From a virus (taxonomy: Duplodnaviria; Caudoviricetes), in IMG/VR virus record IMGVR_UViG_3300038345_000087, positions 1 to 64,000 of that record: a DNA stretch of 64,000 nt. The stretch is one strand, 5' to 3'. Both the position numbers and the translations under genes were made by a program. Within the stretch, counting starts at the first letter, position 1, and every line of letters starts with the position of its first letter. The notes under the pieces were generated by a model. The model was not told the DNA's origin, did no database searches, and saw only the letters and a list, made by a program, of their open reading frames with translations. Below, in pieces: positions 19,699 to 43,014 of this stretch.

Positions 19699-19727
19699 AA
19701 GGAACCCACTATTTCGGTGGGTTCCTT
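19699..19727. terminator. Terminator hairpin between convergent genes
   Basis: AAGGAACCCAC-tatttcg-GTGGGTTCCTT. Confidence 0.75.
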
Positions 19728-20752
19728 ATTCTTTTTGGTATTCGTCTTGTAGTCCATATTCTTCTAAATACCTTTGACACTTGAATCCTTTTCTTGGGGT
19801 GAAATCCGCGAAACTATGTGCCACGAAGTGCGCTTTTTTGTTCACCCATCCTGCCATGTCCTTTTGCCATTGAGGAATAATCTGCTTCGGATTGTTAGGG
19901 TCTCTGTAAGGCTGTGCGTAGGCATATACAGGACGGCCCTTGCCAGCATCCCTTACGGCTCGCATTTTAATCCACCAATGTTGTATGCGTTCATAGCTCT
20001 CTTTGAAGTCGCTTTTTCCTCCTATCATGGTATAAAGAAAATACTGTCCTGTGAAACCATATCGATTTATCATTTCCATCGCTCGTTCACATTCGATTAT
20101 CTGACCTTTGGTGTCACATCCGAAACGGATTCGGTTGTTGTCTAACCATTTCACTTTTGCCAGCAGCTTTGCAATCTCTTCAGTAACCAATCGTGCATCA
20201 AGTGCCTGGTTGAAATCTACTTTATAACCTCTCTGGATAATTTTCTCTAACTGTTCTATTGCATACGTTCCTGCTGCCAATATGTTATTATCCATCAGAA
20301 CTATTTTTCTGCGGCCTTCAATGGCTATTTCGTCAATATCCATATAAGGACGGATTGCACCTTCTTTTCGTGGTACCACACACCAAGGACATTTGTTTGG
20401 GCATCCCCGTGTGAGGAACCCGTAGGCTGTATCTTTAGGTACATTGGGATAGATAGAGTAGTCTGGTTGCAGCCTGTCTATTTCCTCTGGTAACTGTCTT
20501 TCCACATCGTAACCAGTTCCTCCTTTGATGATTACATCTGCATCATAAATACTTAAATCGTCTGGTGTGAAGTTGAACACTTTTGACATATACAAAATGT
20601 CATAGTGCTGCATGGGCGTAGCCCATTCAATTTGCCCCCCCCTGATTATGCCAGTATCGGGCAATTTTCGCCAATGCAAGATTGGGGTATATGGTTGCTC
20701 CCCATTTCTTTTTCTTGGCATGACCGTCAACATCAACTAAACCGATTTTCAT
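19726..20752 (-). CDS. Radical SAM protein, frameshifted at G8 tract (OFF; G7 restores frame)
   Basis: ATG at 20752 (TGATG overlap) gives MKIGLVDVDG..YPNLALAKIARYWHNQGG, then stop; the CPNKCPWC core follows in another frame after C8 at 20635-20642. Confidence 0.85.
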
Positions 20753-21656: not shown

Positions 21657-21909
21657 CTAAATATCATATTCTATAAAAACACATTGACTGACTTCTCCGG
21701 CCATAAGTGCAGATGCTATATTGCCATCCTCTTTGACTCTTGCGCGACGAAGTTCAGAACTTGGGTAGGCTGCATCGAATACTCCTCCAGAACAGCAAGC
21801 GATATACCCCGCTTCTGTTGCCTGTCTGACTAATAGCCACATTTGCCCCCCCCCTCGTTTCAAGGGCAAGGAATGGCCTCGTGGTGCGGAAATGTCGTAC
21901 TTTACTCAT
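21657..21909 (-). CDS. Stand-alone C5-MTase TRD-like mini-protein, frameshifted at G9 (OFF; G8 = ON)
   Basis: ATG 21909 MSKVRHF..ETRGG, tract 21846-21854, then QMWLLVRQATEAGYIAC..DAAYPSSELRRARV..SALMAGE..FIEYDI*. Confidence 0.7.
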
Positions 21910-21910
21910 T

Positions 21911-22513
21911 CTAATTGAACCATTTTACTACGGTGTCACCTTTCCATCCTTTTTCCCATACGAACCATGCGTAAGCTGTTGCACTTCCACTTATTTCATC
22001 AAACTTACCATTCATGGCACACAATAGCCGTGAACAACTGACCCATATTCGTTTCGGTGGCTGTGTGAGAAAGAGGTGTTTTCTACCTTTGCCTTCCAGA
22101 AATGTTAGTTTTAGGAACATGCACACCTTCTTCCCCGTAGGGATGATAGATAATGCTTTTTCCACGAACTCTTGAGCGTAGGCGTAAGGTGGATTGGTAA
22201 CGATATGCCCGTTCCATTCTTGGTTGTCGATGGAGAGGAAATCGGCCACTTCGCCAAAGCCACGATCGATAAGGTCGCGTGAGGTGACGAAATACCCCCC
22301 CCTCATAAGCACTTTGGAGATATGACCCTCTCCACATGCGGGTTCAAGGATAGGAGCATCAAAGTCCTCCAGCTTTATCAACCATTCTGCGGCTTTCGGC
22401 TCAGTGGCATAGTAGTCAGCCCATGCTCGATCATGGTCTGCATGGTTACTGGCTCCAAGAGTTTTGAAAACGCTTGCTTTACCACCTCTCCAGTCTTTCT
22501 TGCGGTCACTCAT
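21911..22513 (-). CDS. DNA adenine methyltransferase with in-frame G8 tract (ON)
   Basis: DYYATEP, ILEPACGEG, VTNPPY; C8 at 22295-22302 encodes RGG. Confidence 0.85.
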   Translation of the reverse strand: MSDRKKDWRGGKASVFKTLGASNHADHDRAWADYYATEPKAAEWLIKLEDFDAPILEPACGEGHISKVLMRGGYFVTSRDLIDRGFGEVADFLSIDNQEWNGHIVTNPPYAYAQEFVEKALSIIPTGKKVCMFLKLTFLEGKGRKHLFLTQPPKRIWVSCSRLLCAMNGKFDEISGSATAYAWFVWEKGWKGDTVVKWFN

Positions 22514-26898: not shown

Positions 26899-26917
26899 AA
26901 TTTTATGAATTTATGAG

Positions 26918-27154
26918 TTAATGAGTTTTCTTACAGGGGCAATTAGCATAGTGCTCATAAGTCCAGTTGCTATATAGCCCTGGGCGTGAAGCCATATAGA
27001 GGTGCCCATTCTTTTTTGCTATGCAGTAGGTGTTGTATTCCTCTACAATCTCGAAGCCGTCATGTTCGAGGTCGTATTCTTCGCAGTGTTGCAAGACTAC
27101 TGCCAGAATAATCAGGAAGGCGATAACCATAATGATTTTGACAATCTTATCCAT
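26918..27154 (-). CDS. Small membrane protein
   Basis: N-terminal hydrophobic helix. Confidence 0.5.
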   Translation of the reverse strand: MDKIVKIIMVIAFLIILAVVLQHCEEYDLEHDGFEIVEEYNTYCIAKKNGHLYMASRPGLYSNWTYEHYANCPCKKTH

Positions 27155-27166
27155 ACTGATGTATAT

Positions 27167-27664
27167 TTATGGTATAACACACAAATCTATGCCCATTGGG
27201 TCATGTTCATCGCAATACGCTTTGCATTCTTCGAGAGTGCCGCTGAATGGATATTCGTGTTCGTGGTGATTCCAGACAGCGTGAGTCTTTCCATTGGCCA
27301 GTTTATCCTTAAAATCCTGACTGTTTACGTCCATGTGAGCACGAAGTTTTAGTGCATCGTGAGGATTAAAGTGTAATGATGGCGTTTTGTCGATGATTTC
27401 TTTCATCACGGCCCAATAGGTGTTTTGTTCCCATTTGTTAGCAGGACGTGCGCGACCATCTGCACGGGTTACAGCCTTGCGCTCTACGATGTCAATGCCA
27501 TTAAAGGAAAATATCTGCTTATTGTTTCTTGGATTCAGTCCGAGAGACATAAACACACAGTTGCTTCCCTGTATTCTCATCAGAGCGCCAGGGCGATATA
27601 TTCGCTTGTAATTTCTATTCTTCATAAATTTATGAATTGATGATTTCCTCAATAGGTTTGTCAC
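27167..27664 (-). CDS. Hypothetical protein
   Basis: ORF; start probably at MKNRNY. Confidence 0.55.
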   Translation of the reverse strand: MTNLLRKSSIHKFMKNRNYKRIYRPGALMRIQGSNCVFMSLGLNPRNNKQIFSFNGIDIVERKAVTRADGRARPANKWEQNTYWAVMKEIIDKTPSLHFNPHDALKLRAHMDVNSQDFKDKLANGKTHAVWNHHEHEYPFSGTLEECKAYCDEHDPMGIDLCVIP

Positions 27665-28193
27665 TCTTTACACCGACGATGATCTCAGCGGTTACGGTGT
27701 CCTGGTGAACATCCTCGAAGTCGTGGTGAATCTCTACCAGTTCGGTGTCTATGATGCTTTCCATCAGTTCCTGTTTGGCCAATGTTTCCATGTAGTGAAG
27801 GCGACGGTTATGCTCCATTTCGTCAAATCCCGTCAGGAATGACTTTTCTCTCTCCAACGTACTTCTGAGGGTTTCCATACGGACGTGCTGACCGTTAATC
27901 TGAATCATGGGATTGTTACGGAATGGATCTTGCATTTCAGCGAGCTTTCTGGTTAGCTTCGCATTCTGCTCTACCAGCACTTTGCCACCCTCGTAATACA
28001 ATTCCTTCTCTTGTTTCAACTTTCTGTTCCATACTCTGAAACAGAAGTTTGAAAGGACAATCAGAAAATAGAGTAAATCAAGAAATGTGTGATAGGTGTC
28101 GCCCTTGATGTAGGCTACCACCGATATGGCCAGCAGTCCAACGATAAGCAGAATGTTGAACGTCCAAAAGAAAATAGTTTTGATTCTTTTCAT
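27630..28193 (-). CDS. Membrane protein (two N-terminal TM segments)
   Basis: Two hydrophobic stretches followed by a coiled region. Confidence 0.6.
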   Translation of the reverse strand: MKRIKTIFFWTFNILLIVGLLAISVVAYIKGDTYHTFLDLLYFLIVLSNFCFRVWNRKLKQEKELYYEGGKVLVEQNAKLTRKLAEMQDPFRNNPMIQINGQHVRMETLRSTLEREKSFLTGFDEMEHNRRLHYMETLAKQELMESIIDTELVEIHHDFEDVHQDTVTAEIIVGVKSDKPIEEIINS

Positions 28194-39679: not shown

Positions 39680-39775
39680 ATGCCTGATAGTGCGCCCGCT
39701 GGTTCATCTGGCGGGTGCCTTTCAGTCTCATTGGATTCTTCACCACCATTAGTGCTGATTGAATATGAATTGTAA
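39680..39775 (+). CDS. Mini-ORF 0 of the IEY array (31 aa, probably degenerate)
   Basis: MPDSAPAGSSGGCLSVSLDSSPPLVLIEYEL*. Confidence 0.45.
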   Translation: MPDSAPAGSSGGCLSVSLDSSPPLVLIEYEL

Positions 39776-40076
39776 ACTGGCAAAATTCTATGAATACGGC
39801 TCTACCTCATATTATGTGACAGGTGATGGTAGGGTGTTGAGTACACGGAATCCTGACCTCCCAATGGATTCTTGGCACGAGATAGCATCTTTCAACGGTA
39901 AGGGCTATCGTCGTGTGCGCATCCAGCGAAAGAACTTCAAGGTGCATCGTTTGGTGGCTGAAGCCTTTGTGCCAAACCCCGACAATCTCCCTCATGTTCT
40001 TCATATAGATGGCGACCGCTGTAATAATCATTATACAAATCTCGAATGGTCCGCGTCCCAATCCAATCACCAATAA
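39765..40076 (+). CDS. HNH endonuclease (NUMOD4/HNH_3-like)
   Basis: GYRRVRI..KVHRLVAEAFVPNP..HIDGDRCNNHYTNLEW. Confidence 0.85.
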   Translation: MNCKLAKFYEYGSTSYYVTGDGRVLSTRNPDLPMDSWHEIASFNGKGYRRVRIQRKNFKVHRLVAEAFVPNPDNLPHVLHIDGDRCNNHYTNLEWSASQSNHQ

Positions 40077-40207
40077 TCCTTGGCTACTATTCTCCTTCGC
40101 AGAATGGTGTTGTGGTCTCTCCATACGGTATCGCGTTATGCCTTGCAGGGGGGGGTAAAGGACATGATACGGACAAACCTAAAATTCTCATAGAGTATGA
40201 TGTGTAA
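40046..40207 (+). CDS. TRD-like mini-protein 1 (53 aa), G8 in frame (ON)
   Basis: ..SPSQNGVVVSPYGIALCLAGGGKGHDTDKPKILIEYDV*; G8 at 40148-40155. Confidence 0.7.
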   Translation: MVRVPIQSPIILGYYSPSQNGVVVSPYGIALCLAGGGKGHDTDKPKILIEYDV

Positions 40208-40346
40208 TGGTGTGGTCATTCTGGTGCTCGGTTCACTCCAGCCGCACGCAGCTGTGGTCAACGTAGTAGGGGGGGGTAATTTCATCCCTTGCTTAGGAAC
40301 AACAGATTTCGGACTTCCAAAATTGGTGATAGAATATGATGTTTAG
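40197..40346 (+). CDS. TRD-like mini-protein 2 (49 aa), G8 in frame (ON)
   Basis: ..GSLQPHAAVVNVVGGGNFIPCLGTTDFGLPKLVIEYDV*; G8 at 40269-40276. Confidence 0.7.
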   Translation: MMCNGVVILVLGSLQPHAAVVNVVGGGNFIPCLGTTDFGLPKLVIEYDV

Positions 40347-40526
40347 TATAACGAATATAGGCGCATTCCGCGTAACGAGGGGGGGGGGCAAATCTGTCCT
40401 ATCAATGTCACGCTTGATGGCTGTGCTGCTACCATCACTACACGTTATGGCGCAATGGACTATTCCAACATCATCAGTTTCGGCCATTTTCCTATGACGG
40501 CTTGTTTATTGGAGTATGATTTATAA
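40336..40526 (+). CDS. TRD-like mini-protein 3, G10 out of frame (OFF; G8 or G11 = ON)
   Basis: MMFSITNIGAFRVTRGG, G10 at 40379-40388, then QICPINVTLDGCAATITTRYGAMDYSNIISFGHFPMTACLLEYDL*. Confidence 0.7.
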
Positions 40527-40687
40527 GATAATAGGTTGGTCCCGCGATGCAGTAGGCAGGGTGGTATGTTATCACTTAAAGGACATCTGCAACACACTTA
40601 CCACCTTTGTAGGGGGGTAAATTTAAGGACTCAAAAACAGACCTCGGCAATACTACGCCTTATGTCTTTATAGAATATGAATTGTAA
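40516..40687 (+). CDS. TRD-like mini-protein 4, G6 out of frame (OFF; G5 or G8 = ON)
   Basis: MIYKIIGWSRD..ICNTLTTFVGG stop at 40618; the shifted frame gives KFKDSKTDLGNTTPYVFIEYEL*. Confidence 0.7.
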
Positions 40688-40940
40688 AAAAAGTATGTTG
40701 ATAAAATCTATTAGATATATAGGATTCCTGAGACCTGACGTGAGTTGTGGCACTGGTTATTCAGAACCCGATAAGTTCCATGTGGTTTATGATACAGGGT
40801 TGGAAACTGATGTGTGGGTTGATATTTGGAATCTTCCAGAGGAATGTGTACGTAGTGCTTTTTTAGAGGATTGTATGATGCTTTTCATTCGCTACCCAAT
40901 AATCTTGATGAAGCATTTGAAATGTATAAGCAAGCAATAA
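40677..40940 (+). CDS. Hypothetical protein inside the array
   Basis: 87 aa; starts MNCK with the same junction sequence as the HNH gene. Confidence 0.5.
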   Translation: MNCKKSMLIKSIRYIGFLRPDVSCGTGYSEPDKFHVVYDTGLETDVWVDIWNLPEECVRSAFLEDCMMLFIRYPIILMKHLKCISKQ

Positions 40941-41001
40941 TTCCAACAGGACGTTGCCCACATTTTTGGCTTAATGAACGTAAAAAACAATAATATATAA
41001 T

Positions 41002-42252
41002 ATGATAGCTAAAATTTATCCAGACAATCATCCAGATTTGGCGGGCAAGCGTGACCCGTCACATCCAGTCCGTTACTTCGATATCCGTAAACTGACAGAA
41101 GGTGAATGCCTCCGTTTGATGGATGTTCCTGAACCTGACATCATCAAACTTTGTAATGCAACAAAGGGCAAGGCGGGGCGCATCAAAGAAAACGAACCCG
41201 CTTATGGTGAAGCAGGACATGGGAAAGGCTCTCCTGTGCTTTCTCGTTCTGCTATCTATAAACTTGCAGGAAACAGTATTGTTGTTTCATGCTTACGTCA
41301 TATCTTCAAGAATATCTATTTGACAGAGGATGATCCTAATGACGCTTTTGAATTGTTCCCTGAACCGACATTCCGTGCCCCTATTCCTTCTACCATTCGT
41401 CTTGTTACACTTTGCTCAGGTTATGACTCACAAGCCATCGCCCTTCAGCAAGTGGTAGATGAGATAAACCAGGGGGGGCAAATCAACGGTTCCGTATGTT
41501 GCGATGGTATCGCAACCCAATTAGATTTGCTTGCTTGGGCTGAATACGACCCAGATCGTCCGAAAATACCACTTGAAAGACAACCCGCCGTAGTTGCACA
41601 TAATATCCTTTTTCCCCAATATGCGGATCGTAACCTCGGCGATATGACAAAGATTGATTGGCCTTCCGTCTATGAGGAGTGGAAGGCGAAAGGAATCTCC
41701 GAAATCGATATTCTTACTTATTCTACGCCATGCCAAAGTATTTCTCAGGCTAGTAAAAGAGCCGGCATAAAGAAAGGTTCTGGCACCCGATCTTCTATAC
41801 TATGGTACACAGAGAATGCCATCCGTACACTCCGACCTAAATTTCTTCTTCAAGAAAATGTCCGCGCTCTGGTGAATGAGGTGAACATTGATGATTTCCG
41901 TGAGTGGCAACAAGTCTGTACTGATTGTGGATATGACAACTATTGGGCCATACTGAATGCAAAGGATTTTGGCGTACCGCAAAACCGTGAGCGTGTGTTC
42001 ATGCTTTCCGTCAGAAAGGATTTGAACCTACCCATATATCGTTTTCCTAAACCTTTCCGCCTCTTGAAGTGTATTGCAGACATCCTTGATGAGGATGTAC
42101 CAGAGAGTTATTTCTTGAAGCCGGATAGTGTTATCAAGTTCTTTCAGACCAATGAAGCAGATAAGAATGCGGCCATCTGTTATGCTTATACAGACCACAA
42201 ACTTTCTAATGAGGAAATCGCACGCATTCGTAAAGAGAATGGGGTGGGGTAA
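41002..42252 (+). CDS. Circularly permuted C5-cytosine DNA methyltransferase core without TRD; in-frame G7 tract
   Basis: Motif order IX (IRKLTEGECLRLMD), X (YKLAGNSIVV), I (TLCSGYDSQ), IV (STPCQ), VI (QENV), VII (LNAKDFG), VIII (PQNRERVF); G7 at 41472-41478. Confidence 0.9.
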   Translation: MIAKIYPDNHPDLAGKRDPSHPVRYFDIRKLTEGECLRLMDVPEPDIIKLCNATKGKAGRIKENEPAYGEAGHGKGSPVLSRSAIYKLAGNSIVVSCLRHIFKNIYLTEDDPNDAFELFPEPTFRAPIPSTIRLVTLCSGYDSQAIALQQVVDEINQGGQINGSVCCDGIATQLDLLAWAEYDPDRPKIPLERQPAVVAHNILFPQYADRNLGDMTKIDWPSVYEEWKAKGISEIDILTYSTPCQSISQASKRAGIKKGSGTRSSILWYTENAIRTLRPKFLLQENVRALVNEVNIDDFREWQQVCTDCGYDNYWAILNAKDFGVPQNRERVFMLSVRKDLNLPIYRFPKPFRLLKCIADILDEDVPESYFLKPDSVIKFFQTNEADKNAAICYAYTDHKLSNEEIARIRKENGVG

Positions 42253-42553
42253 TGAAAAAGATGCTGATAAAAGATACCGAACCGTCCGAAGATATGGCTC
42301 GCATCCGTATTTCGGCAAGCCGTGGCAGGGGGGGCAATCTATGACTTACCTCTATGACCGTTCGCCAAAAGATGATACTGCACCTGTTCGTGTGGCTTCA
42401 TCTGTTAATCGTGACCTTGATGACCTTTCTTTTCGTGGTGCTCATGCGACAAGGAACTTCCATCAAGTCATAGAACTTGGCTCTTCTCGGTTCACCAACA
42501 CTATCACTTCTGTTCTAAAAGACAATCTCGTATGGATAGAGTGTTTTCCGTAA
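42252..42553 (+). CDS. TRD-like mini-protein 5, split at G7 (G8 fuses both parts; the downstream half also has its own ATG at 42341)
   Basis: MKKML..RISASRGRGGNL* then MTYLY..RVASSVNRD..FTNTITSVLKDNLVWIECFP*; G7 at 42328-42334. Confidence 0.65.
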
Positions 42554-42675
42554 GTTTGATTCGTTATCCACATGGTAAGTTTCGTGGTGGTCATTATCAT
42601 GTTCATGCTTTTCCTCCATTAACGACCTCTTGCTTCCAAAACAATAACTTTCTACTTATTGAATATGATTCCTAA
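42532..42675 (+). CDS. TRD-like mini-protein 6 (47 aa, no G tract)
   Basis: ..IRYPHGKFRGGHYHVHAFPPLTTSCFQNNNFLLIEYDS*. Confidence 0.7.
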   Translation: MDRVFSVSLIRYPHGKFRGGHYHVHAFPPLTTSCFQNNNFLLIEYDS

Positions 42676-42901
42676 TAGCCGCCCTGCATGTTGCGATTCT
42701 ATCGAAACTCTCTCATTGACCATTACTACCTCCGCACCTCCTAAACGTATTCCAGGGGGGGCACTTCTTCCTGTAAATACAACAGCCGACGGGCTGGCTT
42801 GCACTCTCAACACTCGTTACGAGGCTATGGCTCTTCCGCTCGACATCCTTTCCCTGGCTCATTACCCCAAGACAGTTATTTTGATAGAGTGGTTCCTATA
42901 A
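42665..42901 (+). CDS. TRD-like mini-protein 7, G7 in frame (ON)
   Basis: ..PGGALLPVNTTADGLACTLNTRYEAM..HYPKTVILIEWFL*; paralog of unit 3; G7 at 42755-42761. Confidence 0.7.
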   Translation: MIPNSRPACCDSIETLSLTITTSAPPKRIPGGALLPVNTTADGLACTLNTRYEAMALPLDILSLAHYPKTVILIEWFL

Positions 42902-43014
42902 TGACCATCAACTCTTCACAAGATGGCATCGTGGTTTCTCCTTGGGGCATTTCTCCTACACACACAGCCGGTCATGGTAATATGCCCAAGGTAATAGTAG
43001 AATACGACTTGTAA
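42901..43014 (+). CDS. TRD-like mini-protein 8 (37 aa)
   Basis: MTINSSQDGIVVSPWGISPTHTAGHGNMPKVIVEYDL*; paralog of unit 1. Confidence 0.7.
   Translation: MTINSSQDGIVVSPWGISPTHTAGHGNMPKVIVEYDL

Follow-up and report, generated by a model that had tools for sequence, protein, structure and literature searches.

The window, the initial 64 kb of the 106,650-bp IMG/VR record of a rumen-type phage, rated 100% complete by CheckV, carries on its minus strand a short gene (21657..21909, stop codon included) that is real and maintained, not debris. Its C-terminal half is, by sequence homology, a target-recognition (TRD) module of C5-methyltransferases (C5-MTases). The reading that we find best, and hold to be probable, is that this mini-gene encodes a trans-acting specificity subunit, switched by slippage at a G tract, for the C5-MTase core at 41002..42252 (+). 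We infer binding to that core, and activity with it, from natural fusions of such modules, from the co-occurrence of mini-gene and core, from a core that has no TRD of its own and from a confidently predicted stand-alone fold.

At present the mini-gene is divided between two frames. Frame A starts at the ATG at 21909-21907, 1 base past the TAG of the upstream gene for a 200-aa methyltransferase; it spans the N-half (21855..21909), which holds the MSKVRHF...RPFL motif, and reads MSKVRHFRTTRPFLALETRGG. Frame B runs from the G tract via QMWLLVRQATEAGY...YPSSELRRARV...CVFIEYDI to the TAG at 21657-21659, and constitutes the C-half, or TRD module (21657..21845), RQATEAGY...YPSSELRRARV...CVFIEYDI. 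Between the two lies the tract itself, nine Gs on the minus strand (21846..21854; C9 on the plus strand), coding for Gly-Gly. One G fewer joins frames A and B into an 83-aa ORF (P0001), and G8, or equally G11, is thus the ON length; at the OFF lengths G7, G9 and G10 translation stops shortly past the Gly-Gly codons. The window therefore carries the gene in its OFF state, as supposed in an earlier note on this DNA, which also pointed to the FIEYDI end of the peptide and to a junction string shared with other cassettes, treated below.

Searching 1.8 billion representatives by phmmer with the G8 peptide returned 265 matches at E ≤ 1e-3. The best of them are free-standing proteins of 63-108 aa with the same layout as the mini-protein: an N-terminal RPFL or RPLL, Gly-Gly, the segment RQAT.GY..C..G.FD..YP.S..RRARV, and a hydrophobic-E-Y tail. 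The RPFL/RPLL element, present in these stand-alone homologs, is missing from TRDs fused to the rest of an enzyme. In two mono-specific C5-MTases the match lies between motifs VIII and IX (P0030, 339 aa, match at 224-280 with PF00145 over 5-336; and P0109). Two further proteins, P0029 (135 aa) and P0010, consist of TRD plus motifs IX and X, and the orphan type is one of several TRDs in tandem in P0010, P0008, P0018 and P0038, P0008 and P0018 being multi-TRD-IX-X proteins. In the fused forms the module ends ...IE-(x)RY-RIRKLTP, so the mini-protein terminates 2-3 residues short of motif IX. The PHROGs matches of the peptide, weak in themselves (E 0.002-0.005), include the profile phrog_16427, on which the peptide falls at positions 61-110 and the N-terminus of the core (IX-X) directly after it, at 111-176. 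The resemblance of the RQATEAGY segment to a repeat in the variable regions of phage C5-MTases, pointed out in the earlier note, thus proves well founded; the interpretation given there was to fall if the peptide had no such homologs, and they are abundant.

The module eludes the usual domain libraries. Pfam assigned the G8 peptide to no family and gave no PF00145 match at E ≤ 0.01; PF00145 seems to carry little TRD signal, because its best stretches in the fused homologs are the flanking conserved motifs. A sequence search of the PDB with the peptide produced chance matches only (C3a anaphylatoxin, E 0.006). The AF2 model of the peptide is nevertheless a confident one (pLDDT 89.6, pTM 0.78), in which the N-half supplies the first strand of a hairpin and the turn, between strands 14-19 and 22-28, is made by the Gly-Gly that the tract encodes; this would account for the tolerance of a G tract there. 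Foldseek found no match to the model at E ≤ 0.001, nor did a wide VIA-align search at Z ≥ 2, and the orphan's TRD type appears not yet to have been solved structurally.

The proposed partner is the sole PF00145 match in the 106,650 bp. It lies 19.1 kb from the mini-gene on the other strand, and it is circularly permuted (IX-X-I..VIII) and devoid of a TRD: just 23 aa precede motif IX (...VRYFDIRKLT), and the boundaries of the ORF are unchanged in relatives. In its AF2 model (pLDDT 68) residues 127-353 align to M.HhaI 7-186, and also to M.MpeI and M.HaeIII; the alignment covers the large domain only, and no part of the model matches a TRD. Among 14 homologs that are only 56-79% identical overall, residues 1-32 are almost invariant, as is a C-terminal TDHKL...EI motif, and these first 32 residues are, from their conservation, a candidate docking surface. 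The N-terminus of the core (window 41002-41097) has the form MIAKIYPD.H..L..K....HPVRYFDIRKLT.

In two relatives, L004 (3839-5122) and L021 (from 3836), a cassette of the CNT[IL]T type, not the orphan's, is fused in frame to the N-terminus of the core; a TRD placed before motif IX is accordingly a natural arrangement. An Asn/Ser-rich linker stands there in place of the IEY stop, and the core of L021 is itself divided between two frames.

Around the core of the window lies an array of eight TRD-like cassettes ending in IEY-stop (39680..43014, plus strand), the family that includes the orphan. A six-frame scan of the whole genome for further mini-ORFs of this kind, as the earlier note had proposed, recovered these eight cassettes with [ILV]-E-[YW] tails and the orphan; the four remaining matches to the pattern are without TRD-like sequence and look like chance. 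The mini-gene fits the family in being a short ORF with a Gly-Gly G tract, with a hydrophobic-[ILV]-E-[YH]-[DE] tail before the stop, and with homologs in the array beside the core.

Some cassette junctions in the array hold other genes. An HNH_3 endonuclease gene sits exactly at one of them, and an unrelated 87-aa ORF at the next-but-one junction has the same initial 12 nt (ATGAATTGTAAA) after the IEYEL tail; the two lie at window 39759-40076 and 40677-40940. From sequence, the cassette boundaries may be an insertion site of the homing type.

The surroundings of the mini-gene are of another kind. It forms part of a tightly packed minus-strand operon comprising an N6_N4 methylase, a PAPS-reductase-like gene, MazG, the 200-aa NPPY methylase, the mini-gene, a 98-aa ORF, Dam and a radical-SAM gene, which ends in a strong hairpin at 19699-19727; that hairpin apart, a scan for promoters and terminators did no better than on shuffled sequence. 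The neighbours are amino-methyltransferases: the 200-aa NPPY enzyme (21911..22513, minus strand; phrog_799), Dam (PF05869) and N6_N4_Mtase (PF01555). That the mini-gene sits among such enzymes with no C5-MTase nearby, as had been remarked before, is correct. No INPHARED phage matched the operon by megablast.

How this arrangement is distributed was examined in relatives. A pattern-based locus search with the single peptide gave one weak locus, and an alignment-based search was used instead; an IMG/VR search with the core found 176 related stretches. Close relatives have equivalent arrays of G-tract-bearing, IEY-terminated mini-ORFs, and in at least 12 other contigs the permuted core is followed, at 0.2-2.5 kb, by a cassette of the orphan's type (for example intact, 84 aa, at G8 in L014/L093, and at G7 in L010/L099). 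Remote placement also recurs. In G001, whose core is 73% identical to that of the window by tblastn and 79% by alignment, the homolog is ~16 kb from the core and on the other strand, with a G10 tract, directly after the 200-aa methylase (87% identical). By exact protein lookup the OFF-state C-half P0162 was found in 103 index blocks, and it directly follows the same methylase in 10/10 contigs examined. The remote copies form one clade in the tree (support 96/92), which indicates a single relocation followed by retention.

So constant a position might mean that the mini-protein is functional but not for the phage C5 core, acting instead as a DNA binder or regulator, or as partner of a host C5 core or of the 200-aa methyltransferase. 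All remote copies directly follow the gene for that enzyme, and the copy in L103, which belongs to a different clade, sits just after a truncated homolog of it, a second, independent placement that hints, on sequence, at some link with that gene. In addition, the DTR-complete 65-kb phage G007, in which neither PF00145 nor a protein search found a C5 core, keeps an intact, tract-less homolog next to its Dam gene, and the predicted fold of the peptide is autonomous. The module, however, is a C5-MTase TRD by homology and is found fused only to C5 motifs; the permuted core is present in 9 of the ~11 sizeable genomes with the mini-gene; and the 200-aa methyltransferase occurs without an adjacent cassette in G002, G003, G004 and G011. 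A role apart from the core is, on balance, unlikely, and the 200-aa methylase as an obligate partner was rejected on account of those four genomes.

Details of some of these loci are worth recording. At 1285-1811 of L103 the mini-gene is tract-less and intact, and the preceding methylase homolog is truncated ~10 residues past its own G-tract site. In G007 (L102 10001-11471) the Dam-type gene, of 316 aa, is inserted directly after the FIEYE tail of the homolog; the tail (...LIEYTEETT) is repeated past the insert, and in L104 it is uninterrupted. Judging by these sequences, genes seem to insert preferentially at the I-E-Y junction. The 92-kb phage G006 has its sole C5 domain inside a 5,554-aa open frame (PF00145 at G006 26911-27816, L172), and its tract-less mini-gene is far from that domain.

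The switch itself was assessed in 24 tract-bearing copies, 13 from viral or metagenome contigs and 11 from ENA/Logan assemblies. Every one of the 24 has both halves open, with G8 as the ON length throughout; the tracts are G7 in twelve, G8 in seven, G9 in four and G10 in one, so that 17 of the copies are OFF. The orphan has a natural ON allele, the 95%-identical P0152 on L174, at G8. Ten independent near-identical assemblies, compared over 1.39 kb with an identical flanking protein and 30 substitution columns, have internal indels in three G tracts only, and these vary independently: 8/9 in the methylase, 7/8/9 in the orphan and 7/8/9 in the PAPS-reductase-like gene, an A7 run remaining constant. 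Two 98%-identical strains match the window closely over ~8-9 kb around the operon, where the indels are G-tract lengths and in-frame 3-bp changes; frameshifting indels in the close stretches occur only at G tracts, other 1-bp indels being in the diverged end segments. The gene thus has the features of a phase-variable one, with a homopolymer inside the ORF, variation of its length between near-identical genomes and both frames intact.

Part of this could be put down to the data: the genome was assembled from a metagenome, runs of a single base are prone to error, and G9 could be a miscall or the consensus of a mixed population, the gene being in effect intact and constitutive or leaky, with no real switch; slippage of RNA polymerase or ribosome on G7-G10 could also yield some full-length product. 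We regard this as distinctly improbable. Independent assemblies show 7, 8, 9 and 10 at the orphan tract, while two more G tracts within 1.4 kb vary independently of it and the A7 run and all other positions are free of indels. The length distribution of G/C homopolymers in the genome is bimodal (35 of length 5, 2 of length 6, 15 of length 7-10), and with few exceptions the long runs lie in the coding strand of genes for DNA modification, in the operon of the mini-gene or at the C5 locus. One strain, moreover, has a tract that is interrupted by an A and still in frame.

Other tracts behave in comparable ways. That of the 200-aa methylase (22295-22302) is G8 and in frame here, G7 in the 98%-identical strain L091 and G9 in L181 and L182; that of the radical-SAM gene is G8 (OFF) here and GGGAGGG, interrupted yet in frame, in L091. 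A Gn-CAAAT context occurs in four unrelated genes: radical SAM (20635-20642), the orphan (21846-21854), array cassette 4 (40379-40388) and the C5 core (41472-41478). The orphan and cassette 4 also have AACGA before the tract in common.

Sequence in common with the array bears on a third explanation, in which the orphan is never itself translated and acts as a silent donor, or reservoir, exchanging sequence with the array by recombination via the G-tract context and the I-E-Y junction. The junction string ATAGAATATGA (21664..21674, minus strand) encodes the I-E-Y-D tail, offers the stops TAG and TGA to the two remaining frames and includes an ATG; exact copies are found here and, as the earlier note had seen, at two places in the 40-kb array, 40329 (+) and 40670 (+). 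Allowing at most one mismatch there are 10 sites against 1.5 expected, a number reached in 0 of 100 shuffles. The orphan has AACGA-Gn-CAAAT in common with cassette 4, and it matches cassette 5 over 14 nt at the junction; an HNH endonuclease gene is present at an array junction, and the Dam gene was inserted at the homolog's tail with a short duplication. P0007, an 89-aa metagenome protein, is a chimera of two cassette types, its N-part resembling array cassette 2 (...SPSQNG..ALCLAGG) and its C-part being orphan-type (KATEQGYIEC...), which is evidence for recombination of cassette halves. But the DNA common to orphan and array amounts to 14 nt at most; the orphan starts at its own ATG 1 nt past the upstream stop, is packed tightly into an operon and conserves a motif in its N-half; no recombinase was noticed close by; and in the tail it is the protein that is conserved and not the DNA. 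In relatives the codons of the tail vary (ATA/ATT/ATC/GTA, GAA/GAG, TAT/TAC/CAT), with synonymous changes among them, so conservation of the junction is at the protein level, and it was taken as a peptide motif, the reading as a DNA site being discarded. We consider a mere donor highly improbable. Inversion, or a shufflon, is likewise an unlikely reading, the longest DNA identity between orphan and array being 14 nt.

Selection on the two halves differs. In the C-half pN is 0.17-0.21 and pS 0.63-1.0, comparison of the window with the other remote lineage included; the N-half is weakly constrained (pN 0.42-0.57, pS 0.44-0.88), with RPFL the exception. That the mini-gene is what decay has left of a once full-length C5-methyltransferase, or of a translocated piece of the array, is very unlikely, the least probable of the explanations considered: it is OFF here and in 17 of 24 copies and has no Pfam match, but not one copy has a second lesion, synonymous sites are saturated while amino-acid change is low, ON alleles exist, and the C5 motifs that should flank it are absent. 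The selection, the open halves and the confinement of indels to the tracts speak against decay and also make a pure assembly artefact hard to sustain. The earlier note had argued that a remote copy which keeps both switch and tail favours function in trans over decay. The second part of that claim stands, on purifying selection, open halves, tract-only polymorphism, the G8 allele and the kept position, whereas function in trans is the interpretation that we prefer.

Completion of the core in trans is the best reading because the permuted core lacks a TRD, its ends are almost invariant, fusions occur, the predicted fold is autonomous and two-subunit C5-MTases are known. On this proposal of a trans-acting subunit, the mini-gene would encode a free-standing target-recognition subunit of ~83 aa for the TRD-less permuted core at 41002-42252. 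Slipped-strand mispairing at the coding-strand G tract during replication would alter the tract length, and the length would set the state, G8 (or G11) giving the full peptide and the G9 of the genome copy leaving it OFF. The ON peptide would fold alone, its N-half as a hairpin with the tract-coded Gly-Gly turn and its C-half as a recognition module with a hydrophobic I-E-Y end strand, and would dock on the core beside motif IX, in the place that a covalent TRD occupies in ordinary enzymes. Once docked, it would add one more methylated target sequence, and part of the phage progeny might thereby escape a host restriction system. The remote copy would descend from an array cassette that relocated once, to a position immediately downstream of the gene for the 200-aa methyltransferase, and selection would have kept it since. 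Docking, activity, target sequence and anti-restriction benefit are all inferred. The more general proposition, that diffusible TRD-only mini-proteins of ~50-85 aa, each switched by a poly-G tract and some of them dispersed, plug into one TRD-less permuted core, we would put at about an even chance.

Four known systems come nearest. The multispecific C5-MTases of Bacillus phages (SPR, phi3T and rho11s type; Trautner et al. 1996, cited in PMC12707154) are likewise phage-encoded and likewise serve one core with several interchangeable TRDs of ~40-60 aa; homologs of the orphan TRD occur in tandem in the multi-TRD proteins P0008, P0018 and P0038. There, however, all TRDs are in one polypeptide, between motifs VIII and IX, whereas here each TRD has its own ORF and G tract, the core is permuted and TRD-less, and one unit, with its own start and stop, is 19 kb away from that core on the opposite strand. 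C5-MTases made of separate polypeptides are also established, both as the natural two-subunit enzymes M.AquI and M.EcoHK31I and through fragment complementation of M.SssI, M.HhaI and M.BspRI (PMC3404938). These cases resemble our proposal in that C5-MTase activity comes from separate polypeptides and breaks in the variable region are tolerated; but in them both pieces have conserved catalytic motifs and form one fixed pair, whereas here the small piece is TRD only, with none of the conserved C5-MTase motifs, and many alternative pieces would compete for one core.

In the specificity subunit of Type I systems, HsdS, a separate protein targets a shared catalytic subunit, and its variation, mostly by recombination of TRD halves, alters the methylome. 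The likeness to the mini-protein is one of logic only, a separate specificity protein for a shared catalytic subunit: fold and enzyme class are unrelated, and HsdS is not varied by one homopolymer per TRD. Switching by poly-G tracts is, for its part, known from the phasevarions of Helicobacter, Campylobacter and Neisseria, in whose R-M genes such tracts occur (PMC7383803, PMC6321876). As here, a homopolymer within the ORF sets the frame, and its length differs between otherwise identical genomes; those genes, however, are cellular and encode complete Mod, Type I or Type II enzymes, whereas this switch is in a phage, in a mini-gene for specificity only, and beside many other switched modification genes. 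None of the four systems unites a free TRD-only subunit, a permuted TRD-less core, a homopolymer switch for each unit and a dispersed copy, and a full-text literature search found no description of the system.

If the mini-protein completes the core in trans, C5-MTases would gain, in very compact form, an architecture with separate specificity subunits that has until now been known from Type I systems alone. The remote copy is the cleanest test case, since read-through or coupling cannot join it to the core and any activity that it confers must be in trans. The nine units of this genome would then have ~2^9 states, giving hundreds of combinatorial 5mC methylomes from one phage genome: a bet-hedging phage methylome set against host restriction, and a natural plug-in scaffold for retargeting cytosine methylation. 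The population data, for their part, show phase variation through homopolymers, which is a hallmark of host-adapted bacteria, at work in the modification genes of phages.
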